Source of the DNA: Klebsiella phage KPN8
Length of the DNA stretch: 64,000 bases
Sequence record: OP079919.1
Strand: one strand, 5' to 3'
Shown: positions 2,135 to 30,895 of the stretch, in pieces
Layout of the letters: the number at the start of each line of letters is the position of its first letter
Position numbering within the stretch: position 1 is the stretch's first letter
Translations under genes and position numbers: made by a program
The notes under the pieces: model-generated
What the model saw: the letters and a program-made list of their open reading frames with translations, nothing else
Databases searched by the model: none
Told to the model about the DNA's origin: nothing

Positions 2135-4738
2135 ATGGACATGAGTGTGTCGTTGGTTCAACCAAGAACTGACTTGATACGTTACGCCGAGTCCAATATG
2201 TGGTCGTCTCCCTATAACGATCAACAATTCAGGCTGGAGCTACAACGTATCAGTCCCCCAGTAGGGTTGGTCAATACCTTTACGTATATGGGTAAAGGGA
2301 GAGGATTACCCGATTCTACTACCCCTCATCACGTCTATACCCTTAGCGGTACGTCGCTAGGGTACTGGAACTTCATCAACAAAAATATAAAAACTAATCC
2401 AGTCGATACCTGGGTGAGAGTTGATTGGCTCAGCCATCAGCGTGGGGTTTATATTGAACTTTATCGTCCCGACGGCAGAATCTATCCAAGAGATTGCGCG
2501 TGGATCATGCGGACTTATGACGGGGGACACCTTCTTTGTGTGGAACGTTTAACCAACTACCCGCTGCCATTAAACGATAACTTCTATCTACGGTGTTATA
2601 CCCCTGATTGGGATATTTATCGTGGGGTGGAAGGAACCGACGAAAATAACGGGTTTCAGTATACCAGTTTCGTTGGTCCAACTCAGGCTAATCTCACGGC
2701 GCTCCAAACCCAACTCAATACGTGGAGTGGTTTAGGTGGATTATCGTCCATTTATGTCGATGGAATAAAATGTCCGTCACTTCCTACAGTGTCGGCTGTT
2801 ACGTCGAATACCATCGTAGAGATTTTCTACGATCCGACCGTTTATAGAGTCGATAACTACGACTTGAAAACTCTGCCGGACTTCTATTCTGATTTGGATA
2901 GCAAACGCAAATACATCGTTCACCCTCCTAAGGTTGAAGGTGACTGGGCTTTCCGGTACTTCGACGATTGCGACATCTACATCACGACCCCAACCGGGAA
3001 AGGACTATATTTCAATATCAATAGTCCGGATGCGTTGCGTCAACTCACTCACGCTGACTATAGTGTGAGTACTGATTACGTCGCGACCCTTATTGATAGC
3101 CTGACGGATCTTAAGAATCGAGATGACCTGAAATTGCAGGTGATTTATCGCAGCACGAACTGGAGTCACAATCTCGTATGGGAAGCCAATCGAATCAGGT
3201 ACCTTTACCGTCTTGATGATAATGGAATAATCAACGCAATGACTGCGGTCCACTCCACGCTACCTGAATGGACAGCCAGTGGTTTGGAAAATTCTTATTC
3301 CATGCTGATCAACAGACAGAAATGGGGAGAGCTGACCGATGAGAACATCGTTAAAGCATTGGGGTTCAATGCCCTGACTCAAGCTTTAGCATCGTCACCA
3401 GTTTCAATGCCCTACGTGGAAGGATACGCCGGTTATGACGTTCCAATTAGTTTCCAAGAAGCTTGCGTGGCTTTTGAGTACGATGCGGACGGTTTACTCA
3501 TTAATAACTACCCATTGACTAATGCGCTGAAATATGCTCCAACCAATCCGACCTGTGCTATGGTGGAGTTCATTGCTGGTAGTCCGGCAATCACCAGACA
3601 TCAAGTGATTGGGAGCGATCCAGTTACATTATTGAAAAACTGGTCTTATTTGGCTTTGCAATCTGGCCGGTTAGTCTCTACTGGGGAATCTGACGGGAAA
3701 TGGGTACCTGCGGTATTGGGTACTGACTATACCGTTACCAATGGTGTTCTTACCTGGATCCACGACTCAACAAACCGGATAGGTAGAGTTATCTTTAACG
3801 ATGTTTTCCTTTACAAGGATTTCACGTTATCACATCTTGATAACTCCATTTATTTCGCCATTACCGAAATATGGGAAGGCGGAGGGATAGCTGCGGATAT
3901 CGCACCGGCTAACATCTACATTTGGATGAACGGTCATCCTCTCATTCTTAACGTCGATTACGTGATGGATTACCCTAGGGTATTCATCAACAACAAGATG
4001 TATTTGAATGAGAGTGGGGAAAACGATTTTGTCGTGGCTGCGTTCGGGATAAGTACGAGTTTAACTCAGCCGGTAGAAGAATCTGAATTGGGTTATATCG
4101 TCGGCGGAACCATCGGGGTTAACGGCCGTTACAATATCCGAGATGGAAGAGATACGAGGCTTATCGCCGCGGGTCGTTTATTCCCATCTGATGGCATTGA
4201 TGATTCAGAGCAACACGCTCCTCAGAACGCCGGTTATTCTCTCAACGGTTACCCGTATCAGGTTAAGCACGTTTATCAGACCGTTCAAAAAGCGGTGGAT
4301 TTTAATAACTATCCTCGGTACGCCGAAGACAGGGATTTGGATAATCGTATCTGTACTTACCTGACGACGTATTGTGAGAAACCAGGTCCTGTCGTTTGGC
4401 CTAACATCTCCGACAAATACAGATTGTTTAGTCCTTTCCTGAATCAGATCGTAAACGCAATATTGCTGAAAATCATTACCGTCCCTGCACCAACCACAGG
4501 CGGGGTATTCAGCAAACAGGTAATCAATGAGCTAACCAAAGATTATCAATGGTTGCTTGATTACGATCCGGCTTTCTTGAAATACGACTTGCGGTATTAC
4601 ACAATCAATCCGTTTTCCATGGCGGGTATGCAAACTGTAACAACCGCCCAGTTACTCTTCATCACTCAGGTTAACGAAATCTATCTCAATAGCGCGTGCG
4701 GCATAGAGGGATATTTTGAGGTAAATAATAATGTTTGA
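2135..4738 (+). CDS. hypothetical large protein (867 aa), possibly a virion or packaging-associated protein upstream of terminase
   Basis: Uninterrupted 2.6 kb ORF with AAGGAA RBS, tightly packed with neighbours. No catalytic motif recognised. Confidence 0.6.
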   Translation: MDMSVSLVQPRTDLIRYAESNMWSSPYNDQQFRLELQRISPPVGLVNTFTYMGKGRGLPDSTTPHHVYTLSGTSLGYWNFINKNIKTNPVDTWVRVDWLSHQRGVYIELYRPDGRIYPRDCAWIMRTYDGGHLLCVERLTNYPLPLNDNFYLRCYTPDWDIYRGVEGTDENNGFQYTSFVGPTQANLTALQTQLNTWSGLGGLSSIYVDGIKCPSLPTVSAVTSNTIVEIFYDPTVYRVDNYDLKTLPDFYSDLDSKRKYIVHPPKVEGDWAFRYFDDCDIYITTPTGKGLYFNINSPDALRQLTHADYSVSTDYVATLIDSLTDLKNRDDLKLQVIYRSTNWSHNLVWEANRIRYLYRLDDNGIINAMTAVHSTLPEWTASGLENSYSMLINRQKWGELTDENIVKALGFNALTQALASSPVSMPYVEGYAGYDVPISFQEACVAFEYDADGLLINNYPLTNALKYAPTNPTCAMVEFIAGSPAITRHQVIGSDPVTLLKNWSYLALQSGRLVSTGESDGKWVPAVLGTDYTVTNGVLTWIHDSTNRIGRVIFNDVFLYKDFTLSHLDNSIYFAITEIWEGGGIAADIAPANIYIWMNGHPLILNVDYVMDYPRVFINNKMYLNESGENDFVVAAFGISTSLTQPVEESELGYIVGGTIGVNGRYNIRDGRDTRLIAAGRLFPSDGIDDSEQHAPQNAGYSLNGYPYQVKHVYQTVQKAVDFNNYPRYAEDRDLDNRICTYLTTYCEKPGPVVWPNISDKYRLFSPFLNQIVNAILLKIITVPAPTTGGVFSKQVINELTKDYQWLLDYDPAFLKYDLRYYTINPFSMAGMQTVTTAQLLFITQVNEIYLNSACGIEGYFEVNNNV

Positions 4739-6446
4739 TACCAGCACCACATCGACCACATCAAGTACGAGTGTTGCGGCGACGGGTCCTCAGTTACCTA
4801 ACTCGAATGATCTACTCACCCCACTCGATATTTCCAACCTTTACGATCCGGATACGGTAGCTGATTCTGATGCGTCAAAATACATCGTTGGTCGTGAAGG
4901 CCAAACGGTCATAGACGGATTGAACCAACGAGCTTACGTCATTACTCACGTTGGGACTGAAGATGCGAAATACAAATCAACGTTAAAACGGATAGGGTTT
5001 GTTACGGATAGCGACGACAACTCGAGTGACATCATTGGTTTACCGGGACGCTTTGCCGGCAATGGTGTTTTGGGAATCGACTACAGTGTCAGACCTCCTC
5101 GGGCTGTCATCGATGGTCGTGTATGGGCTCCTGATGCAGCCTACGGTTTGCTTTATAAAGGCGTGGTTATCGGTGATAGCGGTCAGGTCATTTCTGTTCA
5201 ATACGCAACTAATGGTGATTTGATTTCTAATCAGGTCCCGACTAAATTAGCTGCGGTTAACAACATGACCAACCACAGCATCTTCACCACTACTGCATTT
5301 TCGGTGACTCAAACGGCTGACGAACTCCCGGACGGAAGTTTGTGTACGCTGGTGTTCTTCGATGCTGCCGGTAACATGATTCCTGAACCTTATGAACTTG
5401 GCGTGATGCACACTGCGTTGCTGAGAGATCATCAGATCGGGATCAAGTATGTTTCGGCTATTGAACTGGTCTCTCCTTGGTTCACCGATACGACCGATCC
5501 TACTACGCTGAACATTCCTATCAACGTTGCGATGAGTTCGGTTCAATTCTCTGCGCGCATCCATTATAACGATGGGTCTACCAAAGAGCAATTGATTGAC
5601 GGGACCAAATGTGCGATCATCGGGCTCAATGAATATAAACCTACTACGGTGGGTCAGCGAGCTTCGATCGTACTTCGTTATTCGTTCGATGAGGACGAAC
5701 AGGCTTTAATTGCTACGCCTAATTATCCCGACATGATCACCCAGGCTTATCAGATCGTTTGTACTCAGGTTAACGGCGCCTACTCTCCAAAACTCTACAC
5801 TTATCCGGTGTGGAACGGAACAGGGTATTCGCTCAAACATTACCTGTACGATCTTACCCGTGGGTATGCGACTGACGTTACTCAGCATGTTACACTCAAC
5901 GACACGTCGCCAGCCTTCCAGCCGGCTAACTATGGCGTTCAGCAAGACATGGTGTTTAACCTGACGCTGTCAGACGTATCTTCGACGTTTAAAGCATGGA
6001 CGCTGGTACAACATACTTCTATTACGTTGTATAAAGCGAATACCGGCACGGGTCGTCGTTGGGCTATTCAGTACTCTTCTGCGAATAATCCTTACGTCGC
6101 TTATAACGTCGGGTATACCGAAGCCAATGGTGTTCAGTCCATTAACCTGGCTGGTTCCATCCTCACGATTTCTGATTGGTTGAATCGACTCTACTATCCG
6201 GTAGAACCATTGATCGATACCACGAAAGAATCGGCGGCTCTGGTTCCTAACTATATCCGGTTGGTTGACACTAACGGGGTTACTCACGACCTTGAAATCA
6301 ACGATTGGAATAAACCTCAAGCTCTCACTTCTCCTGTTGCAAGTGGCCAAACCCTCTTCCTGCAATGGATTCAGAAATCAGAGAACGGGGCCGAACTCCA
6401 ATTGGCGACCACGGGTGTTGTTGTAGACGTCGCTCCGAGCAATTAA
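4731..6446 (+). CDS. hypothetical protein (571 aa) with Ser/Thr-rich N-terminus
   Basis: ORF start overlaps the upstream stop (ATGTTTGA), suggesting translational coupling. No motif recognised. Confidence 0.6.
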   Translation: MFDTSTTSTTSSTSVAATGPQLPNSNDLLTPLDISNLYDPDTVADSDASKYIVGREGQTVIDGLNQRAYVITHVGTEDAKYKSTLKRIGFVTDSDDNSSDIIGLPGRFAGNGVLGIDYSVRPPRAVIDGRVWAPDAAYGLLYKGVVIGDSGQVISVQYATNGDLISNQVPTKLAAVNNMTNHSIFTTTAFSVTQTADELPDGSLCTLVFFDAAGNMIPEPYELGVMHTALLRDHQIGIKYVSAIELVSPWFTDTTDPTTLNIPINVAMSSVQFSARIHYNDGSTKEQLIDGTKCAIIGLNEYKPTTVGQRASIVLRYSFDEDEQALIATPNYPDMITQAYQIVCTQVNGAYSPKLYTYPVWNGTGYSLKHYLYDLTRGYATDVTQHVTLNDTSPAFQPANYGVQQDMVFNLTLSDVSSTFKAWTLVQHTSITLYKANTGTGRRWAIQYSSANNPYVAYNVGYTEANGVQSINLAGSILTISDWLNRLYYPVEPLIDTTKESAALVPNYIRLVDTNGVTHDLEINDWNKPQALTSPVASGQTLFLQWIQKSENGAELQLATTGVVVDVAPSN

Positions 6447-6458
6447 GATTCGTTATCC

Positions 6459-6498
6459 TAACTACCGGTCTGAAAAGACCGGTAGTTATATTTTATAT
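6459..6498 (+). terminator. intrinsic terminator-like hairpin (TAACTACCGGTC-tgaaaa-GACCGGTAGTTA) followed by TATTTTATAT
   Basis: 12-bp perfect stem with 6-nt loop and a T-rich tail immediately after the 4731..6446 stop. It lies inside the 5' extension of the 6365 ORF, which argues for the 6530 start of terL. Confidence 0.5.
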
Positions 6499-6529
6499 CG
6501 AGACCGAGACAAACCGACAGGATAAAACC

Positions 6530-9500
6530 ATGTTTGCAAGTAAAGACGAATTAGAACTACATCTTGCAAGAGAAAAACTTGCTATGATAGGAGCGACAGA
6601 AAGTCAGCTCCCCGAATACCTGCTCGATGACGACACAGAAGCGCTTCCCATCAGGACCCCAGAAGAATTGCTTCTAGCCCATTATCGAGAAGACACATTA
6701 AGTGCGATCAAAACGGTCAGGTTCTTAAAGGACTTCGAACGTTATAACGCTAAACCGGATCTGACGACGAAGAACATCTCTTTCTTAAAGGTTGCTGAAA
6801 TCTTTAGACTGATGGGGATAAAGAATTACTATTTCTGCCTCCAGCTCAACAATCCGTTGCTGATAGGGGTAGATCCTTACGACCCCAACCTGACAGATGA
6901 ACAAAAATTCATGATCCTCCAGGAGTGCCGTGAAAACTTCTGGTATTTCCTCCGTGAAGTACTTCATCTGAGCGGTGGTATTCAGTTCCAGGCAAACAGA
7001 GCAAACATCTGTTTCTTATGGTGTTATTTGTGCCACGTCAACACCATGCTTATCATTCCCCGCCAATTCGGGAAAAATTCTAGATTAGATTCTCTTGTAA
7101 AAATACCCAACGGTTGGAAGAAAATGGGGGATATGCGCAAGGGTGACGTAGTATCCACTCCTGATGGTAAAACGGCTAAAGTTACCGGGGTTTATCCTCA
7201 AGGTGTCACTCCTTTATATAAGGTTACTTTTAAAGATGGAAGAGAATCTTACGTCGGGTCTGATCATTATTGGACGGTATGGGATCCCGGTAAGGGTGAT
7301 GGCGGGGTCTGGCGAACACTGACCACACTCGAGTGCCAACAACGCATGACCGAGATGAAGAAAGCGCATAACTATCTTTCTGTTCCTTTGGTTCAGCCTG
7401 ATAATGATCCAGATAAGAAACTTGCCATTCATCCTTATGTTCTAGGTGTTTTACTAGGTGACGGATGCATCTCTAATAAAAGCGTTGTTGTAGCTAAACC
7501 AGATAAAGAGATGTTCGATAAGGTTACAGGGCTCATCCCTGAGTCACTAGAAACCTCATGGGTTGATGATAAGAGCTTTATCATCAGACGTAAGCCGACT
7601 AACATAACCCAGAACAATCAACTTAAAGATGATTTAACCAATCTCGATTTATTCGGATTGCGGTCCTGGGAGAAATTTGTTCCTACCGATTACTTAAATG
7701 GTTCTTATCGCCAGCGTTTAGAGTTGCTACAGGGTTTACTTGATACTGATGGACACGCAGGTACGGGTGGGAACATTGAGTATTGCACGACGTCTCCTAA
7801 ACTCGCTAAAGATTTCGTTTACCTTGCTCGTAGCATCGGGGCAATATGTTCTTGTAAAGAACGCCACACGTATTACACGCATAATGGCGAGAGACGCCAG
7901 GGGAGATTATCTTATCGCATTAGTGTTCGACACACACAGCCTTGGGAACTCTTCACGTTAAGTCGTAAACGAGATCGTTTAGTTGACAAAACACGAGGGT
8001 TAAAATTTAACAGCCGTTTAACCATGCGTTCCATTGAGTATGTGGGGGAAGAAGAGACTCAGTGCATTGAAGTGGACCATCCTGATCATCTTTACATCAT
8101 GGATGATTTCGTCGTCACTCACAACACTGTTTCTGCCCAGAGCATTATGTTCTGGCTAACTTACTTAACCGGGAAGTCTTACGAATCCCACTTAATCACC
8201 CTGAAAGACGATAACCGTAGTCAGTTCGTAGAGGCGTTAAAGGGTATCCGTAACAACATCCCGAGTTACTTAACCAACGTGGGGTGGCGAGATAAGGATA
8301 GCGGTAACTCATTAACCTATAGCGCGTTTGGGGATGATAAGAAAAACATCTTCCGTATTAGTGTACCTCAAATCGGTAGAGAGGCGGCTCGTAACGTCGG
8401 TCGTGGTTTGACTATCAAAACGCGTATGATTGACGAACCGGCATATATCAACTTCATGGAAGAGATACTTAACGGTGCGGGCCCTAGTACACTAACGGCT
8501 CGTGCTAACGCCAGAAGAATAGGTGAACCCTATGGGACGGGATTCATTACCACGCCTGCGAGTAAAACGACGGCAAGCGGCGAATACATGTACAACATGT
8601 TGATGGATGCGACCGAGTGGCGGGAAACGTTCTTCGACAGTTTTAACGAAAGTCATCTCTACCAACGTTTGATTAAAGCAAGTCCTGTGGAGGGAATCAC
8701 CAGTCCTACCGTAGGCATGGTTTTCAACTACTTGCAGCTGGGTAGGAATAAAGACTGGGTTAAGAAAACCATAGACGAGTTAAAACTCAGTTTAGCCGAA
8801 GCGAAGATCGACTTACTGTTAATGTGGGACGACGCCAGTAAAGGTAAACTTTTCGACGACTTAACTCGAGAAGCGTTAAACGAGGGTAAACGAGGAATAC
8901 TCTGGAGTCAGGAAGTAGGGAGTACGGGGTTGTTCATCGACTGGTTTATTACGCCAGAAGAACACACCCAAATCATTACTGGGAATAGTCAAACCTTTTA
9001 CGTAGTCGGTTGTGATACTTCCGCTGCGCAAAACCGAGACGCCTGTACTGTCGTGATAAGAGACGTCATGGACGGTAAAGTGATTGGGGTGGGTCGTTAT
9101 CCGATAGCCTACTTAATGGACGTGGGCGAGGTACTACAAACGATCCTGTTAGAGATTAAGAACAGCTTACTGATCATCGAGCGTAACTTCGCGCATCACA
9201 TGATCGACCAACTGCTCGTTAGTCTTCCTGCATTAGGCATCGATCCCTTTAAACGTATCTTTAATCAGATCGTACAGGATCCGGTTAAATACGAAAAAGA
9301 AATGATCGAGTTTAAACAACGTAATTTCGCTAACAGAGACAGTCACTTCTATCTGAGATTCAAACATTTGTTTGGGTTCGTTACCAACGCCAAAACGCGT
9401 GACGAAGTATATAGTTTTATCCAAGAAGCGGTAGGGACTACCGGAGATAAAATTTACTATACTAAACTCATCGACGAACTGGTCAACCTCAAAGAGAAAG

Positions 9501-9928
9501 GGGGAAGGATAGACCACGAAGCCAATAAACACGATGACCTGGTTATCGCTTGGTTGTTAGGATTCTGGTTCTTGAAACTGGGTAACAATAAAAGCGAATA
9601 CGGAATTCCTCCAGGTATTAGTTTGAGTAAAATCAGCTTGATGCGTGTTGGGGACGATAAAAATGAGGAAACCAACAGTGCGCACAATGAAGCGATGATC
9701 GCACTCTATCGTCGTAAAGTTGAAGAGCTGAGTGACAGACTCATTAAAACCACCGACAATACCGTAGCTCAAAGGATCGAGTACATGATTGACAAACTCA
9801 GCAGCATGATCCCTCAAGATAAGCGTAAGAGTTTGACCATCGATGAAATCGTTAGAAAGGCCAAGGAGGAAAGAAGTCGTCGAGTATTGGAAGCGCGTAA
9901 GTTACGCAGTCGTTACGCGTACATGTAA
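6530..9928 (+). CDS. terL: terminase large subunit (T4 gp17-like ATPase/nuclease) interrupted by an intein
   Basis: The extein around the insertion reads PRQFGK(N)|...|TVSAQSIMFWL, which matches T4 gp17 Walker A SRQLGKTTVVAIFLAHF. The C-terminal part contains FYVVGCDTSAAQNRDACTVVI and HEANKHDDLVIAWLLGFW, resembling the RNase H-like terminase nuclease. Start chosen at ATG 6530 (in frame with the 6365 ORF, downstream of the terminator hairpin). Confidence 0.8.
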   Translation: MFASKDELELHLAREKLAMIGATESQLPEYLLDDDTEALPIRTPEELLLAHYREDTLSAIKTVRFLKDFERYNAKPDLTTKNISFLKVAEIFRLMGIKNYYFCLQLNNPLLIGVDPYDPNLTDEQKFMILQECRENFWYFLREVLHLSGGIQFQANRANICFLWCYLCHVNTMLIIPRQFGKNSRLDSLVKIPNGWKKMGDMRKGDVVSTPDGKTAKVTGVYPQGVTPLYKVTFKDGRESYVGSDHYWTVWDPGKGDGGVWRTLTTLECQQRMTEMKKAHNYLSVPLVQPDNDPDKKLAIHPYVLGVLLGDGCISNKSVVVAKPDKEMFDKVTGLIPESLETSWVDDKSFIIRRKPTNITQNNQLKDDLTNLDLFGLRSWEKFVPTDYLNGSYRQRLELLQGLLDTDGHAGTGGNIEYCTTSPKLAKDFVYLARSIGAICSCKERHTYYTHNGERRQGRLSYRISVRHTQPWELFTLSRKRDRLVDKTRGLKFNSRLTMRSIEYVGEEETQCIEVDHPDHLYIMDDFVVTHNTVSAQSIMFWLTYLTGKSYESHLITLKDDNRSQFVEALKGIRNNIPSYLTNVGWRDKDSGNSLTYSAFGDDKKNIFRISVPQIGREAARNVGRGLTIKTRMIDEPAYINFMEEILNGAGPSTLTARANARRIGEPYGTGFITTPASKTTASGEYMYNMLMDATEWRETFFDSFNESHLYQRLIKASPVEGITSPTVGMVFNYLQLGRNKDWVKKTIDELKLSLAEAKIDLLLMWDDASKGKLFDDLTREALNEGKRGILWSQEVGSTGLFIDWFITPEEHTQIITGNSQTFYVVGCDTSAAQNRDACTVVIRDVMDGKVIGVGRYPIAYLMDVGEVLQTILLEIKNSLLIIERNFAHHMIDQLLVSLPALGIDPFKRIFNQIVQDPVKYEKEMIEFKQRNFANRDSHFYLRFKHLFGFVTNAKTRDEVYSFIQEAVGTTGDKIYYTKLIDELVNLKEKGGRIDHEANKHDDLVIAWLLGFWFLKLGNNKSEYGIPPGISLSKISLMRVGDDKNEETNSAHNEAMIALYRRKVEELSDRLIKTTDNTVAQRIEYMIDKLSSMIPQDKRKSLTIDEIVRKAKEERSRRVLEARKLRSRYAYM
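7079..8125 (+). mobile_element. intein (about 349 aa) with a LAGLIDADG homing endonuclease, inserted in the TerL P-loop
   Basis: Starts with Ser (SRLDSLVKIPNGWKKMGDMRKGDVVSTPDG, Hint block A-like). Block B-like region GSDHYW. Two LAGLIDADG motifs (LGVLLGDGC and LQGLLDTDGHAG). Terminal ...FVVTHN followed by Thr (+1). Removing it restores the contiguous Walker A GK[N]T. Confidence 0.75.
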
Positions 9929-9989: not shown

Positions 9990-10205
9990 ATGAATAAATA
10001 CAACGTTACTTTTATCCGTCACGACGATACTCTGGTCGCTAACGTTCCTTGTGTCAACGAGGAAAAGGATGTGTTACTCGGAGGTGGGTTGGTCGATTCT
10101 CGTTTAGGTCATCTCGAAGTCGATATCAAAACGGGAACTCTCGTTCTCAGATCCAATTGCGCCAACGATTCACTCACGACGGAATGTCGCCTGCATTACA
10201 TTTAA
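9990..10205 (+). CDS. small hypothetical protein (71 aa)
   Basis: ORF with AGGAG RBS 8 nt upstream, followed directly by a strong terminator. Confidence 0.35.
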   Translation: MNKYNVTFIRHDDTLVANVPCVNEEKDVLLGGGLVDSRLGHLEVDIKTGTLVLRSNCANDSLTTECRLHYI

Positions 10206-10210
10206 CATTA

Positions 10211-10250
10211 TACCCCTACGGCGATTACGCCGTAGGGGTATAGTTTTTAT
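10211..10250 (+). terminator. Rho-independent terminator (TACCCCTACGGCG-atta-CGCCGTAGGGGTA + TTTTT)
   Basis: 13-bp perfect stem with 4-nt loop and a T-run. Ends the terL operon just before the convergent tmk gene. Confidence 0.6.
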
Positions 10251-10856
10251 TTAGTTTTTAATGTAATCCACTAACGCTTCAAAATCACCGTCGTAGAAAT
10301 ACGGTTTAATTTTGATTAAAGAACAAGCCGCAGACAGAGCATTTTCGTAACGATGAACGAATCGCTCAAAATACTCTCGGTTGAGAAGACGGGTTTCTTG
10401 ATCATCTAAAATCGATCTGGATCCCGCTCTTTGTAAAAACGTATCGTGATCGATTTTTACAAAGATAAGTTTATCGGGGTACATTTGGGTGCTGAATATT
10501 TTTAAAGCCTTTACGTTGCGTTCTATAACACTGTAAAGACCTATTCGACCATTACCCTGATAAACCGCAGTAGAAATGAAACAGCGATCGGAAATAACCG
10601 TCTTACCTTGGTTTAAAGCAGGAACAACAACTTTATCCCCTAACTCTATTCGCTGAGCAATAGCGAGATAAAGTTTTGCTTCTTCACAAATCCCATTATC
10701 GATAATGAGATTACGGATGGTTAACAAAGAGTCTGGAGACTTAGCCGGTTCCTCCACTTGAAGAACGTCGTAATTATCGGCCTTCAATCTCTCTGTTAAC
10801 TGTTTAGTTAAGGTTGACTTGCCCGCCAAGTCCATGCCTTCTAGAACAATGTACAT
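10251..10856 (-). CDS. tmk: thymidylate (dTMP) kinase
   Basis: N-terminal P-loop MYIVLEGMDLAGKSTL, comparable to E. coli Tmk YIVIEGLEGAGKTT. DRCFISTAVYQG resembles the Tmk DRY..S..AYQ motif. The size (201 aa) is typical. Confidence 0.7.
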   Translation of the reverse strand: MYIVLEGMDLAGKSTLTKQLTERLKADNYDVLQVEEPAKSPDSLLTIRNLIIDNGICEEAKLYLAIAQRIELGDKVVVPALNQGKTVISDRCFISTAVYQGNGRIGLYSVIERNVKALKIFSTQMYPDKLIFVKIDHDTFLQRAGSRSILDDQETRLLNREYFERFVHRYENALSAACSLIKIKPYFYDGDFEALVDYIKN

Positions 10857-23628: not shown

Positions 23629-23690
23629 TTGCCGTTCCTTTTTATTAGACGAAAACAATTTTAAATTTTAAAGTGAAACGGAGCTTAAAG

Positions 23691-25775
23691 ATGACTGAGA
23701 CTTTTTTAAGTCCGTTTGTTGATGACGATTACAGTGCCGATAGGAATATCGTTAAACACTATCATGAACAAATGGCTTTGTATCTTGGTAAAAAGCGCAA
23801 TGAAGATCCTAAAGCTATTTACGAAGTACTTTCTAAACACATCCAGCCCAATCAAAACGGCTATAAAGATCGTCGTATGCAGGTTTTAGTAAAAAACAAG
23901 TACGGCGATAGAGAAGTTAAAGTCATGACGGCATCTAATTTCTTTAATGAAGTTAGACGTCAGAACTGTCATCTCAGTCCCAGTATGGTTGCTTACAAGA
24001 ACACTGAAGAAGAGCAATCCGTTAATGCAATCGGGACAGAAAAATTTCTTAGCCTTCGGTCCCACTATAAAGGGTTAAAACAAAAGGCCAGTGACGAAGG
24101 TGATGAATGGGGTAAGAAGGCTTTCCACGAAATTCAAAACGCCTTGAAAATATTCAACAACGCCCAATCAGGCGCAATGTCATCCCGTGGGACTCCTCTT
24201 GTTAATAAGTCAGGTCATACTGCTCTGACTAGTGCTTGCCGTGCTTTGACCAGTACCGCTAACATGTGTAATGAAAAGTTATTGGTCGGTAACCGATTCT
24301 TTAACTCGTACGAGCGAACGATGGAGAACTTACTGTCGTTGCTCTCAGTTACTGACATTAAGCGAATGGACGAAGTCATCAAGAAACTGAAGATGAACTA
24401 CGCGACCATAGACCAGGTTATGGAAATGGTCAAACGTTGTTCTCGTCGGTATTGGAGAGACGTTAAACAACTCGGCTACATTAAAGAGTTTTTGGAGCAA
24501 CTTCGTCCGGTTGAATTAACGGCTTTGCTTTGCAATATGGATATCGAGGGATTGAGGGTTACGAATAAAGAAATCCTTTATAAATTCTTTGATGACTTCT
24601 CTCATATACCGGAAGTTCCAGAAGGCGCTAAGGCTGAAGATTATACTCCGCCTGATAACGGAGACCGATACACGCTTTGTGTGTCTAAACTCTTAGCGAA
24701 ACCAAGCAAAGTTCAGTTAAACTTTTTAAACCAGTATCATCTGGAAATGGAACATAAGTGGAAAGACTTTATTGAAGTCTTCTTTAAATGCTCCATTCCT
24801 CCATCGGGCATTTATGAAATCAGGGATATGATCCGAGAGGTAGTTCAAACCTCAGATACCGATTCCTCGATTTACACCGTAGATAAAGTCGTAGAGGATT
24901 ACACCGACGAAAAAGGACAATCGTTGAGATTGAATGGGGTTCTTACTTACTTCATTCGAATGATAGCGGTTCATCAGCACGCTCAGTTAAGTGAAAACAT
25001 GAACGTTGCTAAACGCTACCGTAATCGTCTGACGATGAAGAACGAGTACTTGTTTGGAGGATATGTTACAACATTAATGTCAAAACACTATTTTGCCACA
25101 CAGCTGATGGTAGAAGGGGTATTGAATAAAAATGTTGAAATGGAAATTAAGGGTGTTCACTTAAGGAGTTCTAAAGTAGCTCATGAGATAAAGGATTTTG
25201 CACACAAACTCATGAGGGAGATATTGGATTGTATCTATGACAAACGTCAGATGGATGCAGCCGATATTCTCTTTAGAGCAGCAGAGTTAGAAAGGGCCAT
25301 CATTAAGGATATCAACGAAGGCCAATGGGGTTGGCTAACACGCAACACGATAAAGAGTGACGACGTGTACACATTGCCGGATCAATCAGTGTATCAATAC
25401 CACTTACTCTGGGAGGAAGTGTTCTCCCCTAAATACGGACACGCTCCACCACCACCCTATTCTGCTATGAAAGTTAACCTTGATTTAGGTAATAAAGGTA
25501 AGGTCGAAGAGTTTTGTAAGAATCTGGAAGATAGAGAACTTGCAAATCGTTTATTAGATTTCTTCGTTAAGAAAGAGAAAAAAGAAATCAGTACGTTCTT
25601 TGTTCCTGCTGACGTATTACCAAGATTAGGCAAGTTACCCGATGAAGTTATTAAAGCCGCGGATATCCGACAGATCATTAAACAGAACTTAAAATCCGTT
25701 TATGCTGTGTTGGAAGCCTGTGGGCTGTATATTGTTAACGATAAAATAACGCGTTTAATTAGTGACGAACACTAA
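23691..25775 (+). CDS. hypothetical protein (694 aa). Weak resemblance to the C-terminal (palm/thumb) half of a family B DNA polymerase
   Basis: GGAG RBS 9 nt upstream of ATG 23691 (the ORF opens at GTG 23673). Contains ...VQTSDTDSSIY... (compare PolB motif C YGDTDS) and, about 50 aa later, AKRYRN (compare the KKRY motif). Motif B is not clearly present, so the call stays tentative. Confidence 0.5.
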   Translation: MTETFLSPFVDDDYSADRNIVKHYHEQMALYLGKKRNEDPKAIYEVLSKHIQPNQNGYKDRRMQVLVKNKYGDREVKVMTASNFFNEVRRQNCHLSPSMVAYKNTEEEQSVNAIGTEKFLSLRSHYKGLKQKASDEGDEWGKKAFHEIQNALKIFNNAQSGAMSSRGTPLVNKSGHTALTSACRALTSTANMCNEKLLVGNRFFNSYERTMENLLSLLSVTDIKRMDEVIKKLKMNYATIDQVMEMVKRCSRRYWRDVKQLGYIKEFLEQLRPVELTALLCNMDIEGLRVTNKEILYKFFDDFSHIPEVPEGAKAEDYTPPDNGDRYTLCVSKLLAKPSKVQLNFLNQYHLEMEHKWKDFIEVFFKCSIPPSGIYEIRDMIREVVQTSDTDSSIYTVDKVVEDYTDEKGQSLRLNGVLTYFIRMIAVHQHAQLSENMNVAKRYRNRLTMKNEYLFGGYVTTLMSKHYFATQLMVEGVLNKNVEMEIKGVHLRSSKVAHEIKDFAHKLMREILDCIYDKRQMDAADILFRAAELERAIIKDINEGQWGWLTRNTIKSDDVYTLPDQSVYQYHLLWEEVFSPKYGHAPPPPYSAMKVNLDLGNKGKVEEFCKNLEDRELANRLLDFFVKKEKKEISTFFVPADVLPRLGKLPDEVIKAADIRQIIKQNLKSVYAVLEACGLYIVNDKITRLISDEH

Positions 25776-27143: not shown

Positions 27144-27191
27144 TAAATAACATCCCCTTTATAAAAAGCTAATAGCTATTAGGAGTTAAGA

Positions 27192-29204
27192 ATGTCCGAC
27201 AATCAAAATGGCAACAACTGGGAACAAACCGTCCTGAACACCGCTGCTGGTAAAGGAGAGCCGATCGTCTCTGCTTCTGCCGAGAATTTCGGTTCTCAGC
27301 TGCTCGGTCTGCTCGGCCAGGCTTCTCTTCTGGGTTCTTCCAAGAACGTGCCGGAAGTAGAAGAAACCGCGGCTCTGATCAAGAAACGCGTAACCGATCT
27401 GAAAAACGGTACGCCGGGCGAAACCCAGAAGAAGATCCTGCCGGAAGTGAACATCATCACCAAACCGATCATCTCTGCACTGCCGGGCATCGTCCTCTCC
27501 CTGCACATGAACAACAACCCTGCGGTATACGTCATGCCGGTGCTGTTCTCTAACCGTCATCTGACCAATACCCTGGAAGAGATCCAGATCGACAACGGCG
27601 TTAACCAACAGCGCAAAATGTCCATGCCGTTTACCCCGGATTCCTACGCTCGTGCTGATCTGTTCGAACAGATCAAAATGCACTACAAAGCGATGCTCCA
27701 GGATAAAGGTGTGAGCGAATGCGTGATCATCAACGTGATGGTTATCGACCTGGAACAGATCGTTGGTGACGATGTCCTGAATCAGGGCAAATCGCCGCTG
27801 CTGCGTGATGAAATCATGCGTAGCTGGGAACAGGGTCTGATGGTACAGATCGCGAAAATCGCAGCCAACCAGCCGAAAGCTTCTCTGCCTTCTCCGTTCT
27901 CTGCGACCGGTGGCAAAGCCTATGGTCAGCACGGTAATGCGATTGCTCGCGTTGAACCGATCCGCGGTCAGTATGTTAACGAAGGTCTGCTGTCTCCGGC
28001 GAACCTGACCATCCGCATGCAAACTGCTAACCACAACGGTTATCAGGGTAATGCTGAGCAGTCCCGCGAAATCGTCAACACCTACGCGACCGTTAGCCTG
28101 ATGGGTTCTCCGATCCAACAGTTCAACCCGCAGCTGACCGGTAACATTCCGCAGCCGTACCTGCAGACCCCTAACGGTCGTCCTCAGGGCTACACCCCGC
28201 TGCAGCCGGTGGTTATTATGAACCACGCTAAAGCTGGCGAAGTGCTGGGCGATGCGACTGGCCTGTCGACCTACTTCATGGGTCTGTTCTCTCTGATGGC
28301 GACCAACAGCAACTACCTGTTTGCTGAAGCTCTGCGTTCTAAGAACGTAGGTTCTCGTGGCTCCCTGACTGATATGGAACACCGCATCCGTCAGATGGAA
28401 AATGGATTACCTCCGCGCACTAAGGGTACTGAGATGACCGACGCTAAACTGTCGGATATCGATTTCACCACTAACTGGATTCGCGCCAATATTGGACCTA
28501 AAGCAGTCTTTGCTGCTGACCTGATCCAGTTCGGCCCGGATGCGGCGATCTCCAACTTCCTGTTCAACCTCACCTCCGGTGCGAAAGACTACAGCAAATG
28601 CGTGAAAACCGTTATTGCTATCGTCGATTCCATCTCCGGTGATGCGAAAGCCATGTCTGCGGTTATCGCAGAAAACCAGGCCAACAACAATGGTAACGGC
28701 GGATGGATTCCAGGTAAACCGGTACTGCACGTTTCTAACGCGCTGATCCCGGTCGGTACTGCTGTACTGGATAACAAACGCATTGCGCTCGGCGAAGTGG
28801 ACGAGATGTTCCTGTCCAAGCACTACAAAGATCAGATCACCCCGATGAACCAGTACCTGGAAAACATGTACGGGTCTAACCCGAACGTGCCGGAAAAACT
28901 GCGTCGCTATAACCTGCTCATCCAGCTGTCCACCATCTTCTCTGAAGGTGTAAACCTGTTCGGCTTCGCTCGTCGTTGCTACTGGGATCCGCTGTTCATG
29001 GATGCGTTCACTAAAGCGATGAACACCATCGGTTCTCTGCAGGTTACTGGCTCTATGGGTCAGTTCGCTGCTAACGTTCAAGTCTTCGCTCCTGGCCAGC
29101 AGTATATCTCTCAGGCAACTGCTGGTAACTCCGGTGGCGTCGTTCTGGGTAACGGTATGATGCTGGGTGCAGGTGGCGGTCTGGTGTTTGGCCCGTCCTA
29201 CTAA
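27192..29204 (+). CDS. very highly expressed 670-aa protein. Candidate phage-nucleus shell protein (chimallin), with major capsid protein as the alternative
   Basis: Host-like GC3-rich codon usage that is unique in the window (CTG, CCG, GGT, CGT, GAA, AAC). AGGAG RBS and a strong terminator right after. Sits immediately upstream of the RNAP beta' N-fragment gene, as phiKZ gp54 (chimallin) precedes gp55. Gly/Ser-rich, probably flexible N- and C-terminal tails (...GNSGGVVLGNGMMLGAGGGLVFGPSY). Antisense ORFs 27186..28382 and 28407..29081 are GC-driven shadows. Confidence 0.45.
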   Translation: MSDNQNGNNWEQTVLNTAAGKGEPIVSASAENFGSQLLGLLGQASLLGSSKNVPEVEETAALIKKRVTDLKNGTPGETQKKILPEVNIITKPIISALPGIVLSLHMNNNPAVYVMPVLFSNRHLTNTLEEIQIDNGVNQQRKMSMPFTPDSYARADLFEQIKMHYKAMLQDKGVSECVIINVMVIDLEQIVGDDVLNQGKSPLLRDEIMRSWEQGLMVQIAKIAANQPKASLPSPFSATGGKAYGQHGNAIARVEPIRGQYVNEGLLSPANLTIRMQTANHNGYQGNAEQSREIVNTYATVSLMGSPIQQFNPQLTGNIPQPYLQTPNGRPQGYTPLQPVVIMNHAKAGEVLGDATGLSTYFMGLFSLMATNSNYLFAEALRSKNVGSRGSLTDMEHRIRQMENGLPPRTKGTEMTDAKLSDIDFTTNWIRANIGPKAVFAADLIQFGPDAAISNFLFNLTSGAKDYSKCVKTVIAIVDSISGDAKAMSAVIAENQANNNGNGGWIPGKPVLHVSNALIPVGTAVLDNKRIALGEVDEMFLSKHYKDQITPMNQYLENMYGSNPNVPEKLRRYNLLIQLSTIFSEGVNLFGFARRCYWDPLFMDAFTKAMNTIGSLQVTGSMGQFAANVQVFAPGQQYISQATAGNSGGVVLGNGMMLGAGGGLVFGPSY

Positions 29205-29258: not shown

Positions 29259-29290
29259 TGCATTTCATTTTTTGAGTGAACGGAGACGTT

Positions 29291-30895
29291 ATGGATCAGT
29301 ACGGTGATCGTATTATTGATGCATTAACAGCGCCTGAATTTTCATCATTGCAACCAGAGGCTCAGTTTAAAACTTATGCCGAACAATACGGTGGTGACCT
29401 TTCTGACGACAAACGTTTTTATGAACCCCTTTATCCCGACTTCACTGACTATAACCGTTTGCATGATACTGCTAAGGTCGATCCGGTTTACCTGAACGAT
29501 TTCGATTTTTGTTTGGAAGAAGACCGAGAACGAATCGCATCTTTGATTCGTATGGACTTCAACACCGACACATTCGAAACCGTCGCGAGATGTAGTTGTG
29601 GGCATTTGAAGGGCAACTATTTATTGGGTCAGAAAAGATCATGTCCCATCTGTCAATCCCTTGTAGAGAAAGTCGTAGAGACTTCCTTAGATACTAAGGT
29701 ATGGGTCAGGGTTCCAGAAGGTGTAGTTGGATTTATCAGCCCGGCTTATTACAAAACCTTCTTATCGAAGATCGCGACCAATTCTCCAAAGATTGAGATC
29801 GTGACTTGGCTCATCGATCCGTCTTATCGTCGGGGAAGCCGAGCTCAGCATACTGAGTCCGGTCGTCGGATGTTGGCTGAACTCGATAAACTCGGAATAG
29901 TGCCCGGGCTTAACAGCTTTATATTGAACGCGGACAGATTCATGGAACACTTCCTTGTTGGTGAAGGAAGAGGTGCCGTGAGCATGAAGCCGGCTGATGG
30001 TAAAAAGCATTTGGATAAGTATTACGAATATCGTCATCTTATCTTCCCGCGCTATTTGTCCGTACCCAATAAACTCGCCACCATCATCGAGCAAGATGGT
30101 AAAGATAAGTACGTTTCTTCAACCCAATTGAAAACCTCGGCAATCTACCAATCTATTGCGGATACGAGGGATTCTACTGAGTTTTATAAATGTACGATTA
30201 AGGACCTTAAAGAGAACGCTGATATCGTCGGGAAGGCAATAGTTCGATTAGGTAAGCAGAACTCTGATAACTATAAGAGTCAGCTGTTTGCTAAATCGAG
30301 CCTGATACGTAAACACGTAATCGCGGGATCGTTATCTTTATCAGGTCGTGGTGTTATCACGTCAACTACCGGATTGCATGACGCCGGTGTTGCTAAGATA
30401 CCTTGGATCATGGCAGTGGCTATGCTGAAGAAACACATCCTGGGATATCTTTACCGTTTAGGGTACAGTCCCCTGAAAGCTGAAAGTGTAATCAGTACAG
30501 CAGCGCACCAAGTCGTCCCGGTTATCGATCAATTCTTTACCAAGCACGAAAAGCAAAAAGACATTGTCTGCATTTTAGGAAGAAACCCATCAATTCAGTA
30601 CCTGTCAGCAAAAGCCTTCTTTATGTCGATCAACCGAGATTTAGAAGACGAGTCGATAAACTTACCGATACTCTCGGTTAAAACCTTTAATGCTGACTTC
30701 GATGGCGATACGATGTATTGCTACGTCCTCAGCGATTTGAAAGGCAAAGCCAAAGCGTATGGGTCGTTCGGTCATCAGTCCATGCTCGATGAAAACGAAC
30801 CATTTACAATAAGTCGATTTGCTGATCAAACTTCAACGAATTTGATGAACCTCAACAACATGATGAGAGGAACACCAATCAATGAATGCGGCTGA
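29291..30895 (+). CDS. multisubunit RNA polymerase beta' subunit, N-terminal fragment (split phage RNAP)
   Basis: Contains the universal catalytic motif NADFDGD (VKTFNADFDGDTMYCYV) and an N-terminal Cys cluster CSCGHLKGNYLLGQKRSCPICQ (zinc ribbon-like). The ORF ends about 60 aa after the catalytic motif, so beta' is split. ATG 29291 has GGAG 7 nt upstream. Confidence 0.8.
   Translation: MDQYGDRIIDALTAPEFSSLQPEAQFKTYAEQYGGDLSDDKRFYEPLYPDFTDYNRLHDTAKVDPVYLNDFDFCLEEDRERIASLIRMDFNTDTFETVARCSCGHLKGNYLLGQKRSCPICQSLVEKVVETSLDTKVWVRVPEGVVGFISPAYYKTFLSKIATNSPKIEIVTWLIDPSYRRGSRAQHTESGRRMLAELDKLGIVPGLNSFILNADRFMEHFLVGEGRGAVSMKPADGKKHLDKYYEYRHLIFPRYLSVPNKLATIIEQDGKDKYVSSTQLKTSAIYQSIADTRDSTEFYKCTIKDLKENADIVGKAIVRLGKQNSDNYKSQLFAKSSLIRKHVIAGSLSLSGRGVITSTTGLHDAGVAKIPWIMAVAMLKKHILGYLYRLGYSPLKAESVISTAAHQVVPVIDQFFTKHEKQKDIVCILGRNPSIQYLSAKAFFMSINRDLEDESINLPILSVKTFNADFDGDTMYCYVLSDLKGKAKAYGSFGHQSMLDENEPFTISRFADQTSTNLMNLNNMMRGTPINECG

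Follow-up and report, generated by a model that had tools for sequence, protein, structure and literature searches.

The gene for the large terminase subunit (TerL) of Klebsiella phage KPN8 is very probably interrupted at positions 7076–8125 of the window (the whole 64,000-nt stretch of record OP079919.1 that was analyzed) by a full-length class 3 intein. In this reading, the intein has a HINT fold with a nested LAGLIDADG homing endonuclease, is inserted within the Walker A motif of TerL, between Gly-Lys and Thr (GK/T; slashes mark junctions here and below), and resides in a nucleus-forming jumbo phage related to phage Miami. A sequence-only reading had proposed a full-length intein with a LAGLIDADG homing endonuclease that splits the Walker A motif of TerL, and the homologues, the sequence, and the predicted fold agree with it on these points. 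The gene is divided as follows.

6459–6488, plus strand: intrinsic terminator of the upstream virion-protein gene, a 13-pair stem followed by a T-run; phage Miami has an annotated terminator at the corresponding position.
6530–9928 (stop codon included), plus strand: TerL precursor gene, taken from the open reading frame listing; 1132 aa, 129.9 kDa.
6530–7075, plus strand: N-extein, 182 aa, ending with the first half of Walker A, PRQFGK (7058–7075); insert-free homologues read PRQxGK/TV.
7076–8125, plus strand: highly probable class 3 intein, 350 aa, 40.0 kDa, Asn1 to Asn350; assigned from its precise presence or absence among homologues, AlphaFold, Foldseek, and phmmer.
8126–8128, plus strand: Thr +1, the first C-extein residue and the Thr of Walker A GK[T], predicted acceptor of the N-extein; TV follows all 89 inserts, and insert-free proteins read GKTV.
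8126–9925, plus strand: C-extein, 600 aa, containing the remaining ATPase domain (Walker B MIDEP), the nuclease domain, and C-terminal helices; assigned from invariant motifs and fold matches.

The start codon at 6530 is preceded by AGGA 9–12 nt upstream, and a 3399-nt coding sequence is annotated at this position in phages Miami, YC1, phiKp_32, and BUCTxx100; a ribosome-binding site is annotated at the Miami equivalent. The ATG at 6365 lies upstream of the terminator, within the preceding gene, and is therefore not the TerL start. The earlier masses of about 133 kDa (precursor) and about 95 kDa (spliced product) had been counted from this first ATG of the frame and need correction: from 6530, the computed masses are 129.9 kDa for the precursor, 90.0 kDa for spliced TerL, and 40.0 kDa for the free intein. 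The reading frame is free of stops and frameshifts, and a dN/dS of at most 0.02 shows strong purifying selection on the exteins. The terL gene is 96% identical throughout to that of Klebsiella phage Miami, and the phages related to KPN8 by terL are 250-kb jumbo phages. One terL copy was found per genome; Miami has a single copy, and the interrupted gene is therefore taken as the sole terL.

The host protein is a large terminase, which by its modeled fold resembles gp17 of phage T4, in line with the earlier description of the extein. It matched phrog_2 (TerL) with an E-value of 2e-50. As a proxy for the structure of spliced TerL we used P0003, a natural insert-free protein 70% identical to it; the quality of this model was moderate (pLDDT 72.6, pTM 0.47), and its fold matches were unanimous, the best 38 of 38 PDB matches being large terminases (T4 gp17, E 1.9e-16). 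The same model also matched ATPase-only and nuclease-only structures, including the RB49, G20c, and P74-26 nuclease domains. In alignment A2, the following residues were invariant: (i) R178, Q179, G181, and K182 on the Walker A side of the N-extein; (ii) D285, E286, and P287 (Walker B); (iii) D479-T480-S481; and (iv) H651-D652-D653. The GKT, DEP, DTS, and HDD motifs are thus all invariant, as expected of an ASCE ATPase with a C-terminal RNase H-like nuclease. Spliced TerL had no terminase family match in Pfam at E ≤ 10 and no match in the PDB by sequence, including with a 24-sequence profile. The assignment as TerL is therefore founded on the PHROG match and the fold, because the family is too divergent for the Pfam and PDB sequence models.

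The boundaries of the insert follow from its homologues. In KPN8, the exteins and the insert form a single uninterrupted frame, ...IIPRQFGK-NSRLDSLVKIPNGW...DDFVVTHN-TVSAQSIMFWL. The homologue set comprised 120 listed TerL homologues, 31 of them insert-free, and the count of 89 inserts (88 homologues plus KPN8) includes that of the window. All 31 insert-free proteins read PRQxGK/TV, and all 89 inserts begin directly after the Lys and end with THN/T, followed by V. The insert is in frame, has exact boundaries, and is absent from collinear homologues, as is expected of an intein, and its C-terminal His-Asn precedes a +1 nucleophile in 89 of 89 cases. The sequence-only reading had placed a 349-aa insert at 7079–8125 with an N/S junction, ending in HN before a Thr. 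Its 3′ end and HN/T terminus hold, whereas the 5′ end moves to 7076, giving 350 aa and a K/N junction; removal of 349 aa leaves GKN-T, which occurs in no homologue, and the boundary was therefore one codon off. That reading had also counted an alignable insert in homologous TerL proteins as evidence against an intein. Such inserts are found in 89 of the 120 listed homologues, but they do not argue against an intein, because they are precisely absent from 31 homologues and their splicing residues are invariant. Separately, the alternative of a group I intron that carries a free-standing endonuclease gene was ruled out, because the insert keeps the reading frame, lacks stop codons, and has a HINT fold.

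The residues that define the splicing class lie in three blocks.

7238–7279, plus strand: intein block B (GRESYVGSDHYWTV), with His64 (7265–7267) and Trp66 of the WCT triplet (7271–7273); invariant in 89/89 and aligned to H-Q-W of 6bs8.
8054–8101, plus strand: intein block F (ETQCIEVDHPDHLYIM), with Cys330 of the WCT triplet (8063–8065), the predicted first nucleophile; invariant in 89/89 and aligned to the rCvEVD motif of class 3 DnaB inteins.
8105–8125, plus strand: intein block G (DFVVTHN), with Thr348 of the WCT triplet (8117–8119), the penultimate His349, and the terminal Asn350; invariant in 89/89.

Three features mark an intein as class 3: its residue 1 is not a nucleophile, it has the WCT triplet, and Thr or Ser stands at +1 (PMC2807308; for WCT also PMC5050341); Cys at +1 is rare. 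Such inteins are known from helicases and from the large terminase subunits of phages, with most of them in the P-loop (PMC2807308, 2010). The KPN8 insert has Asn at residue 1, the W66/C330/T348 triplet, and Thr at +1. Six residues (H64, W66, C330, T348, H349, and N350) are invariant in all 89 inserts. Residue 1, by contrast, varies (M, L, A, F, Y, P, G, E, Q, D, or N), without a single C, S, or T; among the 89 inserts, Asn is found in KPN8 only, and the Miami orthologue has Asn too. The first residue may influence the splicing rate. The best PDB sequence match by phmmer was the class 3 DnaB intein of Mycobacterium smegmatis (6bs8, E 1.2e-8), aligned in register from residue 4 to residue 4, and in the best matches (6bs8, 6rix, and 6riy, all class 3 DnaB inteins) W, C, and T were aligned. 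From the WCT signature, the predicted first nucleophile is therefore Cys330, a role described for the Cys of class 3 inteins (Tori et al. 2010, PMC2807308), and not the Ser that the earlier N/S junction had implied as residue 1.

The AlphaFold model of the intein, computed without the exteins, had a pLDDT of 92.7 and a pTM of 0.91. Foldseek matched it to TliVMA (E 7e-19), PI-SceI (7e-18), and PI-PfuI (2e-13; stated range, 1e-13 to 7e-19), and to class 3 DnaB inteins with target-normalised TM-scores of 0.77–0.84. The HINT fold is indicated by Foldseek, which matched the model to inteins and the hedgehog autoprocessing domain, and by phmmer matches to 6bs8, 6rix, and gp41-1. No Pfam Hint-family model matched the insert at E ≤ 1, and the Pfam and NCBIfam models of Hint domains and intein termini likewise gave no Hint-family match; all matches in these two collections were LAGLIDADG_3 and weak ones to intein-containing full-length helicase, GyrA, and RecA models. 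The HINT fold is therefore argued from the PDB sequence matches and the predicted structure. The sequence-only reading had taken the absence of Hint matches as a refutation of the intein; this test misfires here.

From the published class 3 mechanism, we infer that splicing in KPN8 would proceed in the following order. TerL would be translated as a 130-kDa precursor, which should be unable to bind ATP because 350 residues separate the two halves of its P-loop. Cys330 (block F position 4), aided by His64 and Trp66 of block B, would attack the peptide bond between Lys(-1) and Asn1 to give a thioester-branched intermediate, and the N-extein would then be transferred to the hydroxyl of Thr+1. Cyclisation of Asn350, assisted by His349, would release the 40-kDa intein, and an O-to-N acyl shift would create a normal peptide bond in a 90-kDa TerL that contains PRQFGKTVSAQ.

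Within the HINT fold, the endonuclease domain has the following features.

7391–7975, plus strand: homing endonuclease domain, approximately intein residues 106–300 (limits approximate); assigned from the secondary structure of the model and Foldseek.
7436–7468, plus strand: LAGLIDADG motif 1, YVLGVLLGDGC, with predicted catalytic Asp129 (7460–7462); this Asp is kept in 8/89 inserts.
7718–7756, plus strand: LAGLIDADG motif 2 (LELLQGLLDTDGH), with predicted catalytic Asp225 (7748–7750); LAGLIDADG_3 matches intein residues 213–267.

Both motifs had been recognized in the earlier reading, and Pfam LAGLIDADG_3 matches at 35.2 bits (cut-off 22.5; E 1.5e-8). The two LAGLIDADG helices, GVLLGD129G and GLLDTD225G, each end in an acidic residue, and Foldseek matched the domain to PI-SceI, PI-PfuI, I-DmoI, and the LAGLIDADG domain of WhiA. 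Both catalytic Asp residues are intact in 8 of the 89 inserts, KPN8 included; endonuclease activity is therefore plausible in KPN8 but not guaranteed. The other 81 inserts have lost one or both catalytic residues and keep every splicing residue. With both Asp residues kept, the freed intein is predicted to cut the P-loop-coding sequence of an intein-free terL in mixed infections, and repair of the cut allele would copy the intein in (homing).

The intein DNA has a history separate from that of terL. At the nucleotide level, the exteins of KPN8 are 90.7–99.1% (N-extein) and 95.2–96.1% (C-extein) identical to those of YC1, phiKp_32, and BUCTxx100, versus 76% for the intein; synonymous differences in this comparison are 0.62–0.81 within the intein and 0.04–0.19 outside. 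The divergence starts at 7072–7076 and ends near 7940. P0002 carries a third allele, so that near-identical terL genes hold three diverged intein alleles in all. The onset of divergence about 4 nt before the insertion point and the three-allele mosaic indicate recent DNA exchange. Relaxed selection as the cause of the diverged intein was ruled out: synonymous saturation is limited to the intein.

These comparisons bear on the strongest of the rival readings, that of an intein that splices but has an inactive endonuclease and is inherited vertically as a passenger, its loss requiring an exact deletion that restores the P-loop. We regard this reading as possible and clearly less likely than an active element. 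It fits the 81 inserts with degraded catalytic sites and conserved splicing residues, among them EL gp11, and it fits the relatives of KPN8: all six sequenced close relatives carry an intein, and no empty target is currently known in the genus. Against it, KPN8 retains both motifs with their two catalytic Asp residues, the three-allele mosaic has a breakpoint at the insertion site, and the endonuclease domain has a dN/dS of 0.14 between alleles despite near-saturated synonymous sites, which indicates selection for endonuclease function. On its sequence, the KPN8 intein looks like one of the few copies still mobile. The intein-free terL site reconstructed around the insertion point reads ...CGCCAATTCGGGAAA/ACTGTTTCTGCC... 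(also written ATTCCCCGCCAATTCGGGAAA/ACTGTTTCTGCCCAGAGC), and the empty site of pTD1 is identical to it at 47 of 69 nt.

Chimallin, the protein of the nuclear shell, is encoded in the window as well. DNA replication is therefore expected inside a protein-walled compartment and translation outside it. The intact endonuclease, the exchange of three deeply diverged alleles with a breakpoint at the insertion site, and the presence of chimallin together suggest, speculatively, that in mixed infections either the endonuclease of the intein or the precursor before splicing could reach the DNA in the phage nucleus and act as a gene drive or an interference weapon between co-infecting nucleus-forming phages; we consider this rather doubtful. 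It can be compared with a homing endonuclease that nicks the polymerase gene of a rival jumbo phage (reviewed in PMC13282480).

A role for the intein as a co-opted conditional switch that gates DNA packaging in response to redox, temperature, or timing is improbable. Class 3 splicing relies on a single catalytic cysteine that is sensitive to oxidation and metals, and the intein has been kept in most of the clade even after decay of the endonuclease. However, the other intein cysteines (87, 131, 237, 258, and 260) lie outside the invariant and near-invariant columns, 31 listed homologue clusters lack the insert, and the difficulty of precise deletion is a simpler account of retention. The sequence-only reading had called the element a natural conditional switch; in the columns of the 89-insert alignment, we found no second conserved cysteine or other regulatory feature. 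A conserved regulatory disulfide was ruled out, since there is no second conserved Cys.

A standard class 1 intein at 7079–8125, with Ser as both residue 1 and first nucleophile and GKN-TVSAQ in the product, is very unlikely. In its favor, a Ser follows the Asn, Ser1 inteins exist, and S-R-L-D-S-L-V loosely resembles block A. However, (i) GKNT occurs in no homologue, and 31 of 31 insert-free proteins have GKTV; (ii) the additional Asn would break the Walker A GK[ST]; (iii) the Cys or Ser required at position 1 is missing, since the first residue is Asn, the second (Ser in KPN8, at 7079) is unconserved and no plausible nucleophile, and no C, S, or T occurs at residue 1 in 89 inserts; and (iv) the full WCT triplet is invariant, and the 6bs8 alignment is in register from residue 4. 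Equally hard to sustain is a permanent, non-splicing TerL domain (an exapted HINT and endonuclease module) or a dead gene copy: an alignable insert in 89 of 120 listed homologues and the missing Pfam Hint match would suit a permanent domain, but 350 residues between the Walker A Lys and Thr are incompatible with a P-loop, all class 3 splicing residues are invariant while the remaining insert drifts to 27–35% identity, and each genome has one terL with an intact frame and an extein dN/dS of at most 0.02.

The preferred reading, a class 3 intein that is predicted to splice and to home, is of practical value mainly for the annotation of the sole large terminase of the phage. Public records name the terL orthologues hypothetical protein, "DarB-like antirestriction," "ATP-dependent DNA helicase," or "gyrA," and the wrong names derive from the intein, not from the host protein. 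The family also adds a large, well-sampled case to class 3 inteins as parasites of phage P-loops, and the whole homing cycle is represented in it, by empty sites, intact endonucleases (8/89 inserts), and decayed ones. If splicing proved slow or condition-dependent, packaging would be gated, and the intein might be worth trying as a self-cleaving tool without Cys or Ser at position 1.

The KPN8 intein is of a well-described kind, and inteins of this kind are common among the relatives of the phage. Orthologous TerL inteins with the same insertion point and the same invariant splicing residues are found in phiKZ-like or chimallin-encoding jumbo phages, including Pseudomonas EL (gp11), Erwinia RisingSun and Joad, Vibrio Aphrodite1 and USC-1, Klebsiella N1M2 and YC1, and Aeromonas D3 and D6. 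Most of these, EL included, are about 314 aa with a decayed endonuclease, whereas KPN8 has the 350-aa form with both catalytic Asp residues. The GenBank record of YC1 carries the note "Phage terminase, large subunit @ intein-containing." In the literature covered, no description of this intein turned up for phage Miami, for phiKZ-like phages, or for those that encode chimallin. The old InBase registry probably had entries for inteins of Pseudomonas phage EL. A search with the intein only gave, among the matches listed, 120 more distant relatives in PhoH, DnaB, RecG, SNF2, and other ATPases; in these relatives, GK precedes the intein in 89 and THN ends it in 116, the +1 residue is T or S, and residue 1 is mostly Ala. 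All proteins listed in this search are at most 613 aa, and the TerL orthologues are absent from it, probably owing to a length filter.

Compared with the prototype of class 3, the DnaB intein of mycobacteriophage Bethlehem (Tori et al. 2010, PMC2807308), the KPN8 intein shares the non-nucleophilic residue 1. Common to class 3 inteins and KPN8 are also the Trp, Cys, and Thr at position 12 of block B, position 4 of block F, and position 5 of block G, respectively, the C-terminal His-Asn, Thr +1, and insertion in an ATPase P-loop. Like that of KPN8, the Bethlehem intein has a LAGLIDADG endonuclease nested in the HINT fold. They differ in residue 1 (Asn in KPN8, Pro in Bethlehem) and in the host protein, which is a terminase in KPN8 and a helicase for the Bethlehem and M. 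smegmatis DnaB inteins. The solved mini-inteins 6bs8, 6rix, and 6riy have no endonuclease domain and are about 12% identical to the KPN8 intein in the Foldseek alignments.

TerL inteins of actinobacteriophages and mycobacteriophages (Kelley et al. 2016, PMC5050341; bioRxiv 10.1101/2025.01.02.630785) also lie in the ATPase domain. The TerL1-a site, at which the invariant Lys of the P-loop is separated from its Thr, is the "classic" site, and the TerL inteins named as class 3 are those of sites c, d, and e (PMC5050341). Both surveys covered actinobacteriophages only, whereas the host of the KPN8 intein is a chimallin-encoding jumbo phage of a Gram-negative bacterium, with a TerL beyond the Pfam terminase models. 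The class 1 inteins PI-SceI (Sce VMA1), PI-PfuI, and TliVMA share with KPN8 the two-domain plan of a HINT fold interrupted by a double-motif LAGLIDADG endonuclease, with query-normalised TM-scores of 0.57–0.71 and sequence identities of 14–17%. These inteins have Cys1 and follow the class 1 pathway, whereas the KPN8 intein, judged by its residues, appears to do neither.

Homologue junctions, PDB matches, and the modelled fold together identify the insert in the large terminase (TerL) gene as an intein; the proposal of a full-length intein in the TerL Walker A motif is thus real and essentially correct, with its junction and its splicing chemistry amended. The segment quoted in the sequence-only reading (...IIPRQFGK NSRLDSLVKIPNGW ... 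DDFVVTHN TVSAQSIMFWL...) was found within a long plus-strand ORF (6365..9928). The first ATG of this ORF, at 6365, falls within the virion-protein gene that precedes terL, on the 5' side of a terminator. An AGGA precedes the ATG at 6530 by 9–12 nt, and this ATG corresponds to the start annotated for the 3399-nt orthologues (89–96% identity to the window gene) of Klebsiella phages Miami, YC1, and phiKp_32 and Stenotrophomonas phage BUCTxx100; the Miami record annotates both the terminator and the ribosome-binding site. Therefore, we take 6530..9928 as the TerL gene, and 6365..6529, which supplies the initial 55 codons of the 1187-aa ORF, is outside it. That longest-ORF version overlaps the end of the upstream gene and runs through the terminator. 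The locus is arranged as follows.

4731..6446, upstream virion-protein gene
6459..6488, terminator (13-bp stem)
6530..9928, plus strand, TerL precursor gene (1132 aa)
7076..8125, plus strand, intein (350 aa, Asn1 to Asn350), delimited by homologue junctions
9990..10205, small ORF 3' of terL
10207..10244, hairpin (17-bp stem and T-run) between 9990..10205 and the thymidylate kinase gene
10251..10856, minus strand, thymidylate kinase gene, convergent

The hairpin is probably a shared terminator; a terminator is annotated at the equivalent place in Miami, and in phage pTD1 terL likewise adjoins a thymidylate kinase gene. From the 6530 start, the masses are 129.9 kDa (precursor), 90.0 kDa (spliced product), and 40.0 kDa (intein), which replace the earlier 133 and 95 kDa derived from the spurious upstream start.

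A search with the protein without the insert retrieved 178 homologues. Among the best 120 listed, (i) 31 (772–823 aa) had an uninterrupted PRQ(Q/F/S)GK↓TV(S/T/G) segment (arrow, junction); (ii) 88 (1027–1134 aa) had an insert directly after the Lys of GK, ending in ...THN and followed by TV; and (iii) P0016 (777 aa, an insert-free length) was left out of both classes, its sequence being unmatched by the search pattern. Therefore, the window insert spans 7076..8125, and the Thr at 8126..8128 is at once the +1 residue (the first of the C-extein) and the Walker A Thr. The claimed terminal HN followed by Thr was confirmed (THN↓T). The claimed start (Ser at 7079, 349 aa) proved one codon late, as the junction is K↓N; excision of those 349 aa leaves GKN-T, which is present in no homologue.

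In the HMM check that the same reading had proposed, the LAGLIDADG_3 part was positive, as the only Pfam match of the insert (35.2 bits; cut-off, 22.5; E 1.5e-8), and the Hint part was negative, with no match to Hint-family Pfam models; NCBIfam gave sub-threshold matches alone, to intein-containing helicase, GyrA, and RecA models. Among PDB sequences, phmmer matched the Mycobacterium smegmatis DnaB intein (6bs8, E 1.2e-8), the MchDnaB-1 intein (6rix, 6riy), and gp41-1, in alignments that cover the N-terminal (blocks A–B) and C-terminal (blocks F–G) segments and pair residue 4 of the query with residue 4 of the chain. The AlphaFold2 model of the intein, built from an alignment of 42 family members, had a mean pLDDT of 92.7 and a pTM of 0.91. 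Its top Foldseek matches in the PDB were the endonuclease-bearing inteins TliVMA (7e-19), PI-SceI (7e-18 and weaker), PI-PfuI (2e-13), and PhoVMA, followed by class 3 DnaB mini-inteins (target-normalised TM-score 0.77–0.84) and, lower, by I-DmoI, other mini-inteins, and a hedgehog autoprocessing domain. The PHROG matches of the insert to terminase, primase, helicase-loader, and helicase families are expected because the intein occurs in several host proteins.

Across 89 inserts (the 88 listed homologues and the window), Cys, Ser, and Thr are absent from position 1 (M, L, A, F, Y, P, G, E, Q, D, or N instead), and His64, Trp66, Cys330, Thr348, His349, and Asn350 are invariant (89/89), although overall identity to the window's intein drops to 27–35%. 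The published definition of class 3 inteins (Tori et al. 2010, PMC2807308; Kelley et al. 2016, PMC5050341) combines a first residue that is not a nucleophile and a +1 Thr or Ser with Trp, Cys, and Thr at block B position 12, block F position 4, and block G position 5, respectively. The invariant Trp/Cys/Thr set, the non-nucleophilic residue 1, and Thr+1 match this definition, by which we assign the intein to class 3 with a predicted Cys330-led chemistry. As expected from the class 3 literature (PMC2807308, PMC5050341), Cys330 would attack the Lys(−1)–Asn1 bond, the N-extein would be transferred to Thr+1, Asn350 would cyclise, and an O–N shift would restore the peptide bond. A Ser nucleophile, implied earlier, is unsupported because insert position 2 is not conserved. 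The suggested "conditional switch" is still speculative; neither a second conserved cysteine nor another regulatory feature was evident in the family alignment and the intein sequence.

The spliced TerL sequence matched the PHROG terminase families phrog_2 (2e-50) and phrog_32359 (7e-37); neither Pfam terminase models nor PDB sequences, profile search included, matched it. The AlphaFold model of P0003, a natural insert-free homologue (70% identical), was moderate (pLDDT 72.6, pTM 0.47) and had, at the insertion site, a strand (168–172), a loop with GKT, and a helix (179–194). Its 38 best PDB matches were all large terminases, beginning with T4 gp17 (1.9e-16), which agrees with the T4 gp17-like extein proposed earlier; the others included D6E, T7, HK97, Sf6, P74-26, and the nuclease domains of G20c and RB49. 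The Walker B (MIDEP) and nuclease (DTS, HDD) motifs of TerL are invariant. Only one terL locus per genome was found in a tblastn survey, and since its P-loop is split, a functional packaging ATPase would, from established knowledge on P-loop ATPases, require splicing.

Both LAGLIDADG motifs claimed for the intein are present (YVLGVLLGD129GC and LELLQGLLDTD225GH). Acidic residues occupy both catalytic positions in only 8 of the 89 inserts (the window, P0001, P0002, P0005, P0008, P0101, P0118, and P0120; all 346–360 aa); the common form, exemplified by Pseudomonas phage EL gp11, is ~314 aa and has lost the catalytic residues. Between the window and YC1-type alleles, the endonuclease domain has a pS of 0.62, a pN of 0.16, and a dN/dS of ~0.14, which indicates purifying selection, and the endonuclease is probably active. 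An intact endonuclease in a mostly decayed family is a modestly interesting extra, as is the three-allele mosaic of this intein.

Relative to YC1, phiKp_32, and BUCTxx100, nucleotide identity is 91–99% in the N-extein and 95–96% in the C-extein, and only 76% in the intein; over the first 105 intein codons it is 68–69%, with synonymous sites saturated. Against YC1, the 5' breakpoint is at 7072, 4 nt ahead of the junction and after just three mismatches over 542 nt, and ~100% identity is regained near 7940, a 3' breakpoint within the intein. The divergent segment 7072..7940, for which no donor was found, lies within otherwise near-identical terL genes in all three comparisons. Miami has the window's allele (97% nt); the metagenomic protein P0002 has a third (66–72% identity over the first 285 residues), despite exteins that are 96–98% identical. 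Relaxed selection is ruled out as the source of this divergence by synonymous divergence three- to twenty-fold higher within the intein than outside. Such an excess, confined to the intein, means that its DNA has a history different from that of the surrounding gene, that is, recent replacement through recombination or homing; the 3' end shared by the alleles suggests, for at least one event, an exchange in which both alleles were occupied.

The tblastn survey of spliced TerL against 50,697 phage records matched 305. Intein-bearing loci, which appear as two pieces spanning 3.2–3.4 kb, include Pseudomonas phage EL and relatives, Erwinia RisingSun and Joad, Klebsiella N1M2, Vibrio Aphrodite1, USC-1, and phiKT1028, Photobacterium PDCC-1, Shewanella FishSpeaker, and several Aeromonas phages; insert-free loci include Vibrio pTD1 and VP4B, Pseudomonas OBP, Erwinia AH04, and Serratia Yubaba. 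The window itself is from a nucleus-forming jumbo phage, as indicated by the chimallin match among the following features.

23673..25775, plus strand, DNA polymerase family ORF
27192..29204, plus strand, chimallin (nuclear shell) homologue (phrog_4795, E 1.6e-100)
29276..30895, 41896..44007, and 43991..45970, plus strand, separate ORFs with RNA polymerase beta-type subunit family matches
54945..56666, minus strand, second, separate DNA polymerase family ORF

These separate polymerase ORFs show the split multisubunit arrangement typical of phiKZ-like phages. A 398-aa ORF (27186..28382) overlapping the chimallin ORF on the opposite strand is probably spurious. How a homing endonuclease gains access to DNA in a nucleus-forming phage is a modestly interesting question raised here. 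PMC10299810 treats Miami as one of the chimallin-encoding phages, and our literature search found no description of this intein in Miami-like or other chimallin-encoding phages. In the YC1 GenBank record, the orthologue appears as "Phage terminase, large subunit @ intein-containing"; other records (NC_070950 Miami, NC_042100 Aphrodite1, AJ697969 EL, OM810292 ZPAH34, and others) list it as hypothetical, "DarB-like antirestriction", "putative ATP-dependent DNA helicase", or "gyrA: DNA gyrase subunit A", names probably acquired because this intein resembles the inteins that such proteins carry.

Direct inspection of EL gp11 revealed a 313-aa insert at the identical point, with HLW, TCIEV, and THN↓T. 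The two top-scoring PDB sequences are DnaB inteins, of which 6bs8 is labelled class 3 in the PDB, and the HxW, C-x-E-V, and THN motifs of 6bs8 and 6rix align with those of the window intein. More distant relatives (32–47% identity over the full length) occur in PhoH, DnaB, RecG, SNF2, and other P-loop ATPases, a spread that agrees with the distribution described in 2010 (PMC2807308). Among the 120 intein relatives listed, 89 follow GK, 116 end in THN, and the +1 residue is Thr in 87 and Ser in 28; this list held only proteins of ≤613 aa, and the absence from it of the 1030–1134-aa TerL orthologues (inteins 45–81% identical) is without biological meaning. Phage terminase P-loops were recorded as a site of class 3 inteins in 2010 (PMC2807308), the Lys↓Thr P-loop site of TerL has been termed "classic" (PMC5050341), and a 2025 survey of actinobacteriophages counted 287 inteins of class 3, with TerL and Cas4 as the main hosts (bioRxiv 10.1101/2025.01.02.630785). 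The window intein belongs to this well-known kind of element.
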